A stretch of DNA of 9,917 nucleotides from a virus, in the UHGV virus genome UHGV-0207821; one strand, written 5' to 3'. Below, piece after piece: positions 2,822-9,917 of the stretch; the stretch's first letter is position 1; each line of letters starts with the position of its first letter. The translations under genes and the position numbers were made by a program. The notes beneath the pieces were generated by a model. That model was not told where the DNA came from. It searched no databases and saw only the letters and a list, made by a program, of their open reading frames with translations.

Positions 2822-3244
2822 TTAAAACGGTATATTATCGCCGTACGGATCATCATTCCCCGACTGTTGTTTTGCCCTGTTCAGTGCGTCAGTGGCCTGC
2901 CCCTGCTGACCTTTTTTGCCGCCCGGTCGCGCCGTTCGCGCACTGATTACGCTGTCTGCGATAACCTGCCAGCCCCGCCGCGTTTCGCCGTTCTGGCCTG
3001 TCCACTGGCTTACCTGCATGTTACCCGCCACGCTCAGGAGTTCACCCTTGCGGTGCTTTGCCAGTGCTTCGGCCTGTCTGCCAAACGCCAGGACGGATAA
3101 CCACATCGTCGCCGTTCCGTCATCTGCCTGGCTGCACGGAAGTGGGACCGCCATACTCGCCATCGTCATTTGTGTACCCTTGCTGGTGGTCTTTAACTGC
3201 GGGTCAGCCACCAGCCGCCCGTAAGCCGCTATCTGTGCTGTCAT
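2822..3244 (-). CDS. ssb: Single-stranded DNA-binding protein (SSB), short form
   Basis: OB-fold region resembles E. coli SSB (QIAAYGRLVADPQLK vs KVILVGNLGQDPEVR; WLSVLAFGRQAEALA vs WHRVVLFGKLAEVAS). Gly/Gln-rich linker and acidic C-terminal tip DDPYGDNIPF (cf. DFDDDIPF). ATGA start/stop overlap with the upstream gene. Confidence 0.85.
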   Translation of the reverse strand: MTAQIAAYGRLVADPQLKTTSKGTQMTMASMAVPLPCSQADDGTATMWLSVLAFGRQAEALAKHRKGELLSVAGNMQVSQWTGQNGETRRGWQVIADSVISARTARPGGKKGQQGQATDALNRAKQQSGNDDPYGDNIPF

Positions 3245-3492
3245 GCTGTCTGCTCTCCGGTTTTAACGTTGATGGTTGTCACCTGTTCCGCTTCGGCAAT
3301 CTCCCGTTCTGTCAGTGTGGCAAAATTTGCCGCCGCCGTGGTCATGAATGCGCTTATCAGTTCGGGATGCGCTTTCGCGTATCCTTCTCCGGCGTGGCGG
3401 TCTATCGTTCTGATTGCCACCTTTAAGGCGTGCTCTGTCATGTCTAATGCGCGATATTTTGGTGCTGTTTTATCTCTGCTTTTTCTGGTCAT
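3241..3492 (-). CDS. Hypothetical protein
   Basis: ORF-track frame 3241-3522; start taken at internal ATG 3492 (MTRKSRDK...) so that it does not run over the iterons. Stop overlaps the ssb start (ATGA). Confidence 0.45.
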   Translation of the reverse strand: MTRKSRDKTAPKYRALDMTEHALKVAIRTIDRHAGEGYAKAHPELISAFMTTAAANFATLTEREIAEAEQVTTINVKTGEQTA

Positions 3493-3503
3493 TCCCCACC
3501 ACT

Positions 3504-3694
3504 CCCCACTTTTTCGCCTCACTTTTTAAGCTCCCCACATGATTTCCAACCTTGTTTTTTTGTGATTCTAATATGTTGTTTTTCAATGTGTTTTTTATTC
3601 CTCACTTTTGAGCCTATATACAGATTGAAAAGTGAGGGGCGCGGTTGCTTTTTGTTCAGTTCCTGCTATCCCCTCACTTTTGCGCCTCACTTTT
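3504..3694. repeat. Iteron array with AT-rich core, candidate replication origin
   Basis: CCTCACTTTT at 3517-3526, 3600-3609, 3672-3681, 3685-3694; variant CCCCACTTTT at 3504-3513; inverted copy AAAAGTGAGG at 3628-3637 forming a palindrome with the 3600 copy. T-rich stretch 3551-3599. Immediately 3' of the replication helicase gene. Confidence 0.55.
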
Positions 3695-5109
3695 TACAGT
3701 GGGCGCACATCATCACCGTCAATAGCGATAACGCCGTCTCTTTCCAGCTTGTACAGCCAGCGCCGGAAGTTTTTCATCTCATACCCCAGCTTTTTCATAT
3801 CATCGCGCAACAACGGGATAGTGCATTTATCGCCGCGCTGTGTGCGTGACCGGATACAGCCCCATAGTGCGGCGTGATTCTCCGTCTTGTTTCCGGCCTC
3901 CTCGATGCGCTCCAGTTCAACGGGTGGGCGCGGCTTATCCACAACCACCAGCGACGTGATTAACTCCTTGTCAGCGTCGGTAAAAAGCTCCACCACACGT
4001 AAATCATATGCAGCCTCTTTCAGTTCCTCCGCGTCCTTCATTTTGGTGCAGGAGATAACCAGGGCCTCACTGTCCGCGCCTTCGCGGCGGATCCGGTACT
4101 CAGCGTCCAGAGATGCACGAAATGCACTGGAACCACGCGCCCCTTTTGTTTCATCCTTGCCGGAATGGTGAACCACCAGCACCGTGGCCCCTGTGCGTCG
4201 TTTCAGTTCGTCACATCCACGGATAAACGCCCCCATATCCCGCGCGTCATTTTCATCATTACCGCCAAAGCAACGCGCCAGCGTATCCAGAATAATCATG
4301 CGTACCGGTTTACCCGTTTCCCGTTCAACCTGGCGGGATGCGATAACCATTTCATCAACATCAAACTGGGCTGCAGGAAAAATCGGGCGGTTTACCAGGT
4401 ACAGATTTTTCACCCGTTCATCATTAACGATTTCCCATGCCTTGATACGGCGGGGGACACCAATGCCACCTTCACCGACAACATACATCACCGAACCATG
4501 CGCCACCCTGCGACCTCCCCAGTGGCGACCCGTGGCAACATGACACGCCCAGGAACACGCGAGGAACGATTTATAGGAACCGCTCGCGCCGTATGTGCTG
4601 CACAATGAATTAGCCGGAATCACGCCCTTAACGACATAATCAAGCTGTGTGTCGTACCCTGCAGATCCAATGCTCATTGGTAGCGTGGTTTTTCGCTGGC
4701 TGTATTGCTCGTCAGTAAGTATTTCCCCGCGCTCTGCCTGTTCGCGGATCCGTTGCAGGTAGTCGTGCCAGTTCTCCAGCTTCTGACTGTGCATTCCCTC
4801 AGGGTAATAATTCGCATCCCGTACACCTGCCGCCGCCAGCTTTTGCCCGATGGCATTAATATTTGACGGCTTGATGTGGCCTGCCTTGTACAGTCGGACA
4901 CAATAGCGACCATCGTCGATAATTTTCAGGCCTGCCAGTTCGTCAAGCTGGCTGTCTCCCAGCCATACAGGCGGAACATTGTCGCCAGCAAGTCGCCCGT
5001 CCTGCTCCTGCCATTGTTTCGCGTGCGCCCAGGCATCACTACCCGCAAAAATAATGACTTCGGTCATTTTGTCGTAAGGCTGTTTTTTTAAGTTCGGTGC
5101 GCTTTTCAT
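3694..5109 (-). CDS. Replication initiation helicase, RepA/DnaB-like RecA-fold ATPase with C-terminal winged-helix domain
   Basis: 471 aa. Walker A-like YGASGSYKS, Walker B-like RMIILDT, then VLVVHHSGKD, typical of RepA-like (AAA_25) helicases. C-terminal LGYEMKNFRRWLYKLERDGVIAIDGDD looks winged-helix. SD AGGGG before ATG 5109; ATGA overlap with the upstream ORF. Confidence 0.8.
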   Translation of the reverse strand: MKSAPNLKKQPYDKMTEVIIFAGSDAWAHAKQWQEQDGRLAGDNVPPVWLGDSQLDELAGLKIIDDGRYCVRLYKAGHIKPSNINAIGQKLAAAGVRDANYYPEGMHSQKLENWHDYLQRIREQAERGEILTDEQYSQRKTTLPMSIGSAGYDTQLDYVVKGVIPANSLCSTYGASGSYKSFLACSWACHVATGRHWGGRRVAHGSVMYVVGEGGIGVPRRIKAWEIVNDERVKNLYLVNRPIFPAAQFDVDEMVIASRQVERETGKPVRMIILDTLARCFGGNDENDARDMGAFIRGCDELKRRTGATVLVVHHSGKDETKGARGSSAFRASLDAEYRIRREGADSEALVISCTKMKDAEELKEAAYDLRVVELFTDADKELITSLVVVDKPRPPVELERIEEAGNKTENHAALWGCIRSRTQRGDKCTIPLLRDDMKKLGYEMKNFRRWLYKLERDGVIAIDGDDVRPL

Positions 5110-5870: not shown

Positions 5871-6103
5871 AACCCCCCCCCATTTTCACAATCAGCAATC
5901 AGGATGGCTTTGGCCTCATTCAGCGCCATATCCGCACTAAGTTGCATAACCGCCAGCGAATGAGGAACGAAAGCCCCGGCATATTCTGTTTCACTGGTAG
6001 CGTGCTTATGCGCCCTGTCCGCGATAACAGAAATATCAATCGGCGCATCAATCAGTGTTTTGATTGCTTCGGCGGCTGCGTCCGGACGGGTGTTATTGCA
6101 CAT
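5843..6103 (-). CDS. Hypothetical protein, upstream half of a possible poly-G frameshift pair
   Basis: 86-aa ORF; the G9 tract encodes the GGG in ...ADCENGGGLCVMIVLIP near its C-terminus. A 10-G tract would fuse it in frame to the 5637-5870 ORF. Confidence 0.45.
   Translation of the reverse strand: MCNNTRPDAAAEAIKTLIDAPIDISVIADRAHKHATSETEYAGAFVPHSLAVMQLSADMALNEAKAILIADCENGGGLCVMIVLIP
5873..5881 (-). repeat. Homopolymeric G9 tract (C9 on plus strand) at the junction of two ORFs
   Basis: Nine consecutive C on the plus strand at 5873-5881, inside one ORF and directly upstream of the next ORF's ATG. Confidence 0.9.
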
Positions 6104-6461
6104 GGTGCACCTCCTGGCGAATACGGGCGGCGAATACCATCACGCAGCCAGCCGGGGATTGCTGACGTGCTTCCTGTTCGCTGGTGGCCTCGATGTGAAT
6201 CACGCGCGGTTGTGCCGTGCTCAGGGCGATAAAACGCCAGATAAAATTGTTCTCGCATTTCTGAATAAACAGCGTGTTTTCTTCGCGCCCTTTCCATGTT
6301 GCCGAGATATAGCCCATGTCATTGAGCATCTCGCAGGCATCCACCAGCGTATCAGCGGCTACGTGTACAGTGTTTTTACCGTCAGCCATGCAATCACGGT
6401 GCACCGCCAGGAAGGTGTATATAAATTTAGGGTGAGTTTGGGTATGCTGTGTTCCAGCCAT
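6093..6461 (-). CDS. Hypothetical protein, first gene of the leftward operon
   Basis: 122 aa from ATG 6461 (MAGTQHTQTHPKF...), SD GAGGT about 8 nt upstream. Normal amino-acid composition, unlike the junk-like translation further upstream in the same frame. Confidence 0.5.
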   Translation of the reverse strand: MAGTQHTQTHPKFIYTFLAVHRDCMADGKNTVHVAADTLVDACEMLNDMGYISATWKGREENTLFIQKCENNFIWRFIALSTAQPRVIHIEATSEQEARQQSPAGCVMVFAARIRQEVHHVQ

Positions 6462-6669
6462 AATCGTTACCTCATTTAACGGTTTGGTTAGAAGCCCGGT
6501 TAGTGTTCGCGCACTGCCGGGTTTCGTCGTTTTTATGAATCGCTCATTGTGAGATACATAGCGACCCCCATGTGAGATACACATTATATTGTGGTGATAT
6601 ACATTGCAAGTGTTTTTATATCTCACTTTTGTGTATAGTGATATACACATAACAAATTGGTGATTAACT
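6462..6669. promoter_or_regulatory. Divergent regulatory region with operator-like repeats
   Basis: Four same-orientation copies of GTGA(G/T)ATACA at 6549-6558, 6572-6581, 6593-6602, 6639-6648; inverted partial TATCTCAC at 6619-6626; palindrome GTGTATA-GTGA-TATACAC at 6631-6650 just upstream of the RHH gene. Lies between divergent gene starts at 6461 and 6670. Confidence 0.55.
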
Positions 6670-6972
6670 ATGTCTGTATACAAAAATGCAAAATCGCAAA
6701 TGACAACGATCAGGGTTCCCCACGATGTTATGGAGGGCATGGAATCCGTAAAACTGGACGGCGAAAGCAACGCCGGATTCATAGTAACCGCCATGCGCGG
6801 TGAGATCGCTCGCCGGCAGGCAGAAGGAAGAGGAGAAAATCCCTTGGTTTCTTCGCTCGATGCACTGGCGCAGGTGGAAAAAATCGGTGTCAAAGCAGCC
6901 GAGGAGATCGGGCAACTCGTCACCGTCGCGCGTGAAGAACTCCAGCGGCGCAAGGCCAAAGAACCAGAGTAA
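6670..6972 (+). CDS. Ribbon-helix-helix (CopG/Arc-like) transcriptional regulator, candidate element repressor
   Basis: N-terminal MTTIRVPHDVMEGMESVKLDGESNAGFIVTAMRGEIARRQ fits the RHH strand-helix-G-x-S-x-N-helix pattern. SD GGTGA 6 nt before ATG 6670. Charged, helical composition. Confidence 0.6.
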   Translation: MSVYKNAKSQMTTIRVPHDVMEGMESVKLDGESNAGFIVTAMRGEIARRQAEGRGENPLVSSLDALAQVEKIGVKAAEEIGQLVTVAREELQRRKAKEPE

Positions 6973-7029
6973 TCACCATCAGCGCCGTGGTGTAAGGTAT
7001 TACGGCGCATTGCTATGCAGGACAACACA

Positions 7030-7203
7030 ATGACCGATAAAGAATTGACCAAAACATTATCACCGGCACGGAAAAGACGGCGCAGAAAGATAGAGCATGA
7101 ATCAGAAAGATTCGCGCCATGTGCTTTTGCTCTTGAGAAATTCCTTAAAGAGCACAGGAAAAAGCTCTCGTTGCAAACCTTGGAACGAACCAAATCTGAC
7201 TGA
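7030..7203 (+). CDS. Small basic protein, hypothetical
   Basis: 57 aa from ATG 7030 (SD AGGA 7 nt upstream); very basic (RKRRRRK). Co-oriented with the RHH gene and followed by a terminator. ATG 7015 is an alternative start. Confidence 0.4.
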   Translation: MTDKELTKTLSPARKRRRRKIEHESERFAPCAFALEKFLKEHRKKLSLQTLERTKSD

Positions 7204-7676
7204 TCACATTGCCCACCAGCCGCAAATGTGGCATTGTTGGTGATGCTCATGCGTTGGGGATAACGTGTAGCTTGTGTCGAGGGGCCACCGTAGCGGGTGG
7301 CCTTTGTTTTGCCTGTTATCCGGCAATTGTGGCGCTTCGCCACACGGTTGATATAATCCCACTGCTCAGATTCATTTTTTGCGCAGTAGGTTAATTGTTC
7401 ACAAAGGCGCTCCGGCAACGGGGCGCTTTTTGTTTTTATTAGTTTGTAGAAACCTGACTCAGAGATAATGCTCATATTCTGATTGCCGTCAGGGGGGTAA
7501 GTTAAATTTACTCCCTTTTCATCAAGCATCTGCAACGCTCTGGCGTTAATAATATTGGTTTCACTCCCGCCAATAAGGCCGGAAATAACCGGAATAATTT
7601 CAGCGAAATTTTGCAGATTCTGGTTTTCAGGCCGAACGAAGCCCCGCCCCTGTACAGGCGTATATCCAGTATTCAT
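7204..7676 (-). CDS. Possible Bro-N/antirepressor-like protein; 3' end undefined because the frame has no stop until 6093
   Basis: N-terminal ~125 aa from ATG 7676 look protein-like; NMSIISESGFYKLIKTKSAP resembles the Bro-N/antirepressor signature (weak, from memory). Beyond about 7300 the translation turns Cys/Ser-rich and runs antisense through the RHH operon and the operator region. The 7204 end is arbitrary. Confidence 0.3.
7283..7310 (+). terminator. Rho-independent terminator of the plus-strand regulator operon
   Basis: GGCCACC (7283-7289), loop GTAGCG, GGTGGCC (7296-7302), then TTTGTTTT (7303-7310). Confidence 0.55.
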
Positions 7677-9779: not shown

Positions 9780-9873
9780 ACCGGCGCAGAGGAGACAATG
9801 CCGGATTTAAGACGCGGATGCACTGCTGTGTGTACTGTAGAGTCTGGCGGATGTCGACAGACTCTATTTTTTT
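9780..9873 (+). ncRNA. mcaS: About 94-nt sRNA with four GGA motifs, McaS(IsrA)-like
   Basis: Promoter-to-terminator unit with no ORF. 5' stem-loop CCGGC...GCCGG; GGA motifs in single-stranded or loop contexts (GAGGAGA, CCGGATT, GCGGATG twice); terminal hairpin plus U7. Sequence matches my recollection of E. coli McaS, a CsrA-binding sRNA; not verifiable here. Confidence 0.55.
9838..9873 (+). terminator. Rho-independent terminator of the sRNA
   Basis: TAGAGTCTG (9838-9846) pairs with CAGACTCTA (9858-9866); 11-nt loop containing GGA; followed by TTTTTTT (9867-9873). Confidence 0.7.
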
Positions 9874-9917
9874 ATGCAGTTTTAACTTTGCAGATAGCCG
9901 CATTCTCGCCGGAATTG

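Follow-up and report, generated by a model that had tools for sequence, protein, structure and literature searches.

PICIs disseminate genes for virulence and for defence against phages, and their own replication has to outpace that of the helper phage. In the satellite P4 the alpha protein combines a primase with a helicase of the SF3/D5 type, whose C-terminal winged-helix origin-binding domain reads short iterons, and replication depends on ori and crr, two cis regions that lie apart from each other and contain TGTTCACC repeats. IncQ plasmids place iteron binding (RepC), helicase (RepA) and primase (RepB') on separate proteins and have iterons of 20 bp. SaPI Rep proteins are self-loading initiator-helicases in which a C-terminal winged helix reads short repeats (Qiao et al. 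2022, PMC9371898). They are AAA+/MCM-like 3'-5' helicases, and their oris consist of 6-12 iterons immediately downstream of rep, with a unit of 5-6 nt, split by a central AT-rich region and with at least two iterons per side pointing in opposite directions (PMC9371898). For Gram-negative PICIs, passages of Fillol-Salom et al. (2018, ISME J, PMC6092414) place the origin, an iteron/AT-rich ori, directly 3' of the replication gene, list four Pri-Rep alleles and compare PICIs with P4. The same source describes how the rep-ori of EcCICFT073 maintains a temperature-sensitive plasmid, maintenance being abolished by deletion of either rep or ori (passages of PMC6092414).

We analysed a 9,917-nt stretch of viral DNA (UHGV virus genome UHGV-0207821), referred to here in its full length as the window. 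Read from right to left, the gene order is tyrosine integrase, AlpA, small ORFs, a DUF4222 protein, a 471-aa AAA_25 helicase and a 201-bp spacer, and continues past the spacer with an 83-aa protein, SSB, a gpE-type capsid protein, a gpD-type decoration protein, a second AlpA-like protein (818-1201) and a Nu1-like small terminase (terS, 74-628). Pfam matches were obtained for int, AlpA, SSB, the gpE-like capsid, the gpD-like decoration protein and the Nu1-like TerS. The exact lambda cosN 12-mer GGGCGGCGACCT is present at 750-761 on the minus strand, between the second AlpA-like gene and terS, and the order of cos followed by terS is that of lambda; this cosN is presumably the packaging site of the island for a lambda-type helper. 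The same island, of ~9 kb, is carried by E. coli KSC1031 between abgR and smrA (L001), and it is syntenic with EcCICFT073 (L087) and EcCIO42 (L088, from strain 042). With int, alpA, a unidirectional operon, rep-ori, capsid and decoration homologues, cos and an att site, it has the hallmarks of a Gram-negative PICI of the EcCICFT073 family. In EcCIO42 the rep slot holds a 466-aa 'helicase RepA family protein', an 89%-type helicase. Its ori aligns with the window, and the AAAAGTGAGG iterons there match those of the window in sequence and position. Since EcCIO42 shares both the window-type RepA-family helicase and the iterons, the window represents an EcCICFT073-family island with an EcCIO42-type replicon. 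Sequence related to 3400-3800 was found in 746 of 5,426 complete E. coli genomes; the spacer had no match in the phage collection searched and only two doubtful plasmid records.

A number of further features of the island were recorded. The lambda gpE-type major capsid and gpD-type decoration genes occupy 1213-2691 on the minus strand, and neither a portal nor a protease was detected in the window; according to passages of PMC6092414, the equivalents of the two genes in EcCICFT073 (c1499 and c1500) are not the cause of phage interference. At ~6298-6670 the window is ~170 bp longer than the otherwise near-identical KSC1031 island, as implied by gene coordinates, the extra sequence falling between an Icd-like gene and a divergent YlcI/YnfO-like ORF (6670-6972). 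A long ORF at 6093-7676 (minus strand) looks spurious. By the integrase end, an McaS/IsrA sRNA at 9780-9875 on the plus strand (Rfam, 118 bits) indicates the flanking chromosome at the abgR-smrA insertion site.

We consider it very likely that the spacer between the helicase stop codon and the following gene (3493-3693) is the replication origin of this EcCICFT073-family PICI with an EcCIO42-type Rep. The features on which the analysis draws are as follows.

3694..5109, minus strand: replication initiator-helicase of 471 aa (TAA stop at 3696-3694), with an N-domain, an AAA_25 ATPase core and a predicted C-terminal winged helix
3697..3882, minus strand: predicted winged-helix coding region (aa 410-471), with recognition helix aa 448-457 and the N447 codon AAC at 3769-3771
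3685..3694, plus strand: iteron 1, CCTCACTTTT, which is AAAAGTGAGG in the helicase sense; shares position 3694 with the helicase stop codon
3672..3681, plus strand: iteron 2, 13 bp from iteron 1, with which it makes up the helicase-proximal doublet
3628..3637, minus strand: iteron 3, the sole inverted copy and right arm of the palindromic pair
3600..3609, plus strand: iteron 4, left arm of the palindromic pair, adjoining the AT-rich core
3540..3599, no strand: AT-rich core of 60 bp, 70-85% A+T, T-rich on the plus strand; candidate unwinding element
3517..3526, plus strand: iteron 5, member of the distal doublet
3504..3513, plus strand: iteron 6, variant CCCCACTTTT of the GTGGGG type, 12-21 nt upstream of the ATG of the next gene
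3241..3492, minus strand: next gene, encoding an 83-aa protein (PHROG 1231, no Pfam match), with start ATG 3492; overlaps the start of the SSB gene

Exact copies of CCTCACTTTT (n = 5) begin at 3517, 3600, 3672 and 3685 on the plus strand and occupy 3628-3637 on the minus strand, and the one-mismatch variant at 3504-3513 is the sixth site of the array; further bare CCCCAC cores are present at 3494-3499 and 3533-3538. Allowing up to one mismatch to CCTCACTTTT, the window contains seven matches against an expected 0.62, six of the seven lying inside 3504-3694, and none of 200 dinucleotide-preserving shuffles of the window equalled this number. The seventh match, a lone one-mismatch site at 6621, is compatible with chance given that expectation, and the same scan found no second iteron cluster elsewhere in the window. 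The array fills the spacer between the helicase stop codon at 3694-3696 and ATG 3492, and because the genes here are on the minus strand it lies directly 3' of the helicase gene. The motif scan, the shuffles and the gene coordinates bear out this much of a preliminary description of the locus, which had reported six copies, one variant and one inverted, flanking a T-rich stretch directly 3' of the helicase gene. The same description had the iterons overlapping the 5' region of the next gene, with possible replication-coupled control of downstream expression, and here the overlap needs correcting. Both RefSeq and independent gene calls in related loci place the start at ATG 3492, and a 93-aa ORF from GTG 3522 was rejected as the true gene, a 1-nt indel just upstream of the ATG in relatives breaking the longer frame. 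The iterons therefore fall within the leader and ribosome-binding region and not within coding sequence.

The copies are distributed unevenly around the AT-rich core, two on the left and four on the right. Stability in the region is lowest at the 40-mer 3560-3599, which lies in the core and belongs to the least stable 1% of the window. Two 25-nt doublets, 3504-3528 and 3672-3696, each have an internal spacing of 13 bp and are separated from one another by 168 bp, or ~16 helical turns, while the copies at 3600-3637 form the palindromic pair. In 3400-3800 DnaA boxes and GATC are absent and no candidate IHF site is convincing, so that we see no sign of DnaA, IHF or Dam/SeqA involvement.

One genome per species was scanned, giving 80 helicase-homologue loci across Enterobacterales plus one Oceanospirillaceae MAG. 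In ~80 related loci the array has the same position directly 3' of the helicase gene, and in most of the ~80 scored loci the sites follow a common layout measured from the stop codon: direct copies at ~+2 and ~+15, an inverted copy at ~+55 to +57, a direct copy at ~+87 and one to three direct copies at ~+145 to +185, the two distal direct sites typically being at ~+170 and ~+183. The six-site layout is complete in the E. coli, Xenorhabdus and Pectobacterium groups, and in some loci no more than three or four copies can be recognised. At stop+100..+139, 89 loci have a conserved AT-rich block, with 70% A+T versus 50-58% in the flanks.

Certain islands share the neighbourhood of the window but carry another Rep. 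The L006 island, with a DUF927 Rep, and the CFT073 island, whose Rep has D5_N/DUF5906/Pox_D5 domains (D5_N/SF3 type), both have the same downstream 83-aa gene and SSB and the same upstream DUF4222 gene. In the equivalent slot the former contains ~14 copies of TGCGGGTTA and the latter CTGTCTACC repeats. The same neighbours thus accompany unrelated repeats when the Rep differs, which excludes the neighbour genes as readers and ties the repeats to Rep. The 83-aa gene is always next to the ori, whatever the Rep/ori type (RepA, D5/SF3 or DUF927); its presence downstream of unrelated types means that its product is not the iteron reader, and it may be a conserved replication accessory protein.

The core of the helicase (aa 152-320) matches Pfam AAA_25 of the RepA family (E = 3e-44), with Walker A (GASGSYKS) and Walker B (MIILD) motifs legible in the sequence. 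In a PDB sequence search the only solved structure matched by the core was RSF1010 RepA (1g8y), and weakly so (E = 0.019). A Pfam search found no primase domain in the window allele; helicase homologues of ~700 aa, encoded at L011, L056 and other Xenorhabdus, Pectobacterium and Serratia loci, have a Zn_Ribbon_Prim and Toprim_3 primase fused to AAA_25 and the winged helix. The N-domain (aa 1-134, encoded at 4708-5109 on the minus strand) has no Pfam match, matches part of PHROG 864 ('DNA primase') and is modelled by AF2 with confidence as beta-alpha-beta. With the N-terminus of the EcCICFT073 Pri-Rep, an otherwise unrelated protein of the D5/SF3 type, it has 61% identity. It looks like a module common to different PICI Rep alleles, and is possibly a domain for interaction with the host or helper. 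An origin of the N-domain as a decayed Toprim/primase remnant of the Xenorhabdus-type fusions was considered and rejected, as BLASTP detected no similarity.

In the full-length AF2 model aa 1-128 and 410-471 are confident and the ATPase core is poor (pLDDT 64.5). A fold search with this model returned only generic Rossmann-type matches, attributable to the poorly modelled core, and was discarded. The C-domain (aa 396-471) was remodelled alone with AF2 for the fold search, with a mean pLDDT of 85.7 and a pTM of 0.73. Its topology comprises H1 (410-425), a short strand, H2 (431-440), H3 (448-457) and a two-stranded wing (461-470), with N447 directly preceding the recognition helix. The best PDB matches obtained with Foldseek are all winged-helix DNA binders, namely DtxR/IdeR, LexA with DNA, PcaR and the MCM WH, with TM scores of 0.58-0.68 and rmsd of 2-3 Å over 62-70 residues. 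Their E-values are weak (0.08-0.4), as is usual for so small a domain.

The core of the repeat tracks a short motif of the helicase, situated among its last 30 residues and just ahead of an invariant RW. KN[FL] accompanies GTGAGG (the E. coli window type, ~25 Xenorhabdus, Rosenbergiella and the Oceanospirillaceae locus), TKH[FL] accompanies GTGGG, RKSF accompanies GTGCGGC and [SNAD]KKF accompanies GTGGGGGA (the Pectobacterium class). Across ~345 aligned columns from 70 loci, the column of window residue N447 is the only one that perfectly predicts the base after GTG, its mutual information being equal to the label entropy (1.374 bits, four residue types): N accompanies A, H or K accompany G, and S accompanies C. 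Asn usually prefers adenine and His and Lys usually prefer guanine, so the N/A and H,K/G pairings are consistent with the usual residue-base preferences. One further idea, in which co-resident islands escape cross-talk through divergence of their iteron classes, was dropped because genomes with two loci often share one class; these include the Xenorhabdus pairs L009/L015 and L011/L019 and the Pectobacterium pair L059/L060.

The helix-motif classes largely follow protein clades, and part of the covariation could therefore be due to shared ancestry. This confound is broken by three observations, together with switches within E. coli. Firstly, L004 is a natural chimera with an ATPase core 98% that of L002 (GTGAGG) but with the helix and all iterons of the L003 (GTGGG) type. 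Secondly, the N-domain is excluded as the iteron reader, both because its 61% identical counterpart in the EcCICFT073 Rep goes with unrelated iterons and because homologues with a primase N-terminus keep the helix-motif rule (Xenorhabdus with GTGAGG, Pectobacterium with its own class). Thirdly, a prediction held: E. coli and Salmonella KHF helicases were chosen by protein search before their DNA was seen, and in the seven KHF loci fetched (L089-L094 and L097) the positions are unchanged and all copies read AAGTGGGG. The KHF helicases of this test include P0001, P0032, P0085 and P0071, with GTGGGG in all copies, P0001 being 95% identical to the window protein. P0079 (KNF) and P0085 (KHF) form a near-isogenic pair with oris of GAGG and GGGG respectively; of 468 residues only 6 differ, four in the C-domain, among them N to H at 447 and others at R457 and A462. 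Between the window protein and P0001, 13 of the 22 differences fall within the last 76 aa, a concentration which suggests that the C-domain and the adjoining ori were exchanged together.

The rule is not absolute for each individual site. GTGGGG distal sites occur beside N447 helicases in the window itself (the last copy, 3504-3513) and in L095 (the last two copies), indicating that the distal half either tolerates the other class or retains it from a recombination event. The one clear exception is the Salmonella locus L096 (Logan SRR3081675 contig), in which a KNF helicase is followed by GAGG in the first copy only, the remaining copies being GGGG or decayed; this locus has lost the 83-aa gene and SSB downstream, with ProQ and PerC genes in their place. 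It is probably a decayed recombinant, and may be one caught with a mismatched origin. We lean slightly towards the view that the winged helix together with the neighbouring ori makes up a compact specificity cassette of ~400 bp swapped by recombination, with residue 447 alone setting replicon specificity. If so, N447H combined with concerted iteron conversion would create a new, orthogonal PICI replicon, and the locus would hold a natural one-residue/one-base recognition code for a helicase-initiator. A covariation between residue 447 and the iteron base was not found in the literature texts that were searched, nor was the iteron sequence found in the text portions of the PMC6092414 supplements, whose figures are images.

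The confident AF2 fold, the covariation with residue 447 and the successful prediction together favour the C-terminal winged helix as the predicted reader of the iterons, the role for which the preliminary description had put it forward. The accompanying proposal, that a SaPI/P4-type origin lies 3' of the helicase, likewise gains from the synteny with EcCICFT073 and EcCIO42, the published ori slot (as described in passages of PMC6092414) and the Rep-specific repeats in that slot, all of which argue for origin function here by analogy. Replication, binding and melting at the window allele are in each case inferences.

Other functions for the repeats have to be weighed against an origin. The array lies within an operon in a region where a consensus scan of 3200-4000 found neither sigma-70 promoter hexamers nor a terminator-like site, so that the origin is probably transcribed through, and its distal copies are 12-34 nt upstream of the ATG of the next gene. 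The repeats might on these grounds be Rep-binding sites mainly for control, either as a roadblock or repression of read-through into the 83-aa, SSB and capsid genes or through handcuffing, with initiation elsewhere; iterons have dual initiation and control roles in iteron plasmids. We regard this as improbable, since the conserved AT-rich core is flanked by iterons as in origins, the window contains no second cluster (the site at 6621 being within chance) and, in passages of PMC6092414, deletion of the equivalent slot in EcCICFT073 abolishes replication. A control role could exist alongside origin function.

Somewhat less credible still is a set of operators for AlpA, for the second AlpA-like protein or for a PerC-type protein, driving a late promoter for SSB and capsid genes. 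The island does encode two AlpA-family HTH proteins and the array is located upstream of the morphogenesis genes. The repeats however track the helicase type and residue 447 and not the neighbour genes: they are unrelated in islands with the same 83-aa, SSB and DUF4222 genes but another Rep, and they differ between near-isogenic helicase pairs that differ at 447. Promoter-like hexamers were not found in 3200-4000.

A third reading takes the hairpin of the palindromic pair as the functional element, either as an RNA structure or as a single-strand initiation signal, and treats the other copies as incidental. The pair at 3600-3637 folds as a 10-bp stem (DNA dG -7.8 kcal/mol, z = -2.8), and both of its arms switch together between GAGG and GGGG islands. 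The same base change is nevertheless made in four or five non-palindromic direct copies, which a hairpin leaves unexplained; there is no terminator-like site at the array, and the Rfam search matched no family to it, the McaS in the chromosomal flank being the only match. This makes the hairpin as sole element a very unlikely explanation, and a hairpin role after melting is a possible add-on to the origin. Finally, the suggestion of a cos/pac packaging site, with the repeats as small-terminase sites like the R sites of lambda cosB, could appeal to the Nu1-like TerS of the island and to the direct and inverted TerS sites of lambda cosB, but is given almost no weight in view of the exact lambda cosN immediately upstream of terS and 2.7 kb from the array, the covariation of the repeats with the helicase and their presence in EcCIO42/O157-type islands with no small-terminase gene on the annotated maps.

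Returning to the spacer as a replication origin, we propose the following sequence of events. After induction, the RepA-family helicase would be made from the island operon. Its winged-helix domains would bind the AAAAGTGAGG iterons to the left and right of the AT-rich core, with N447, at the N-terminus of the recognition helix, recognising the A in GTGAGG. The AT-rich core would be distorted and melted by several protomers sitting at the palindromic pair and at the in-phase doublets (168 bp, ~16 turns), and the same protein would then assemble as a ring helicase on the exposed strands. As one protein would both bind the iterons and form the ring, it would act as a self-loading initiator-helicase; with no primase domain in the window allele, the host or helper phage would have to supply the priming. 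The island SSB, encoded two genes downstream, would coat the single strands, and the replicated DNA, as concatemers, would be cut and packaged from the lambda-type cos at 750-761.

An origin 3' of rep is an already described kind of PICI origin and the window allele belongs to it. What the present analysis adds is the family-wide conserved layout, the RepA-type motor and the residue-to-base specificity rule. The locus offers a clean and widespread case of a PICI origin driven by a helicase of the DnaB/RepA type rather than the AAA+/SF3 type, and its natural variation yields a sharp hypothesis on origin specificity, in which residue 447 is set against one iteron base; this variation suggests a specificity module moving by recombination inside the origin. 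The practical value lies in better annotation of PICI origins and possibly in orthogonal replicons, and the general picture of PICI replication is unchanged.

The closest relatives are the origins of EcCICFT073 and EcCIO42, which share the island family and gene order with the window, EcCIO42 also having the same Rep allele and AAAAGTGAGG positions. EcCICFT073, the tested replicon, differs in having a Pri-Rep of the D5_N/SF3 type and unrelated CTGTCTACC iterons, only the N-terminal 134 aa being common with the window helicase. The RepA of the IncQ plasmid RSF1010 belongs to the same AAA_25 family as the window core, although the match is weak (1g8y, E = 0.019). In the window, however, the predicted reader and the helicase are one polypeptide and the repeats are 10 nt long; a Pfam search of the main ORFs and part of the small ORFs found no RepC- or RepB-like gene, and with neither a separate RepC/RepB' nor 20-bp iterons the window is distinct from an IncQ oriV. 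P4 is likewise a satellite replicon with a C-terminal winged helix on its helicase, a domain predicted in the window. The window differs from P4 ori/crr in its AAA_25 core in place of D5/SF3, its single cluster and its lack of a primase domain, and the P4 type I iteron TGTTCACC is absent from the window, which sets it apart from the P4 type proper. With SaPIs the window shares an array directly downstream of rep, iterons around an AT-rich core and a predicted C-terminal winged helix. There is no sequence homology between the two systems; the window unit is 10 nt, only one of the six copies is inverted and both flanking doublets point in the same direction, a departure from the opposed-iteron rule of SaPIs, and the window helicase has a RepA-family/AAA_25 core (RecA-fold, DnaB-like). 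The window architecture thus resembles SaPI oris and is not identical to them: given its RepA-type motor, the SaPI-like solution of a helicase with a winged helix and iterons around an AT-rich core would here have been assembled on a different motor.
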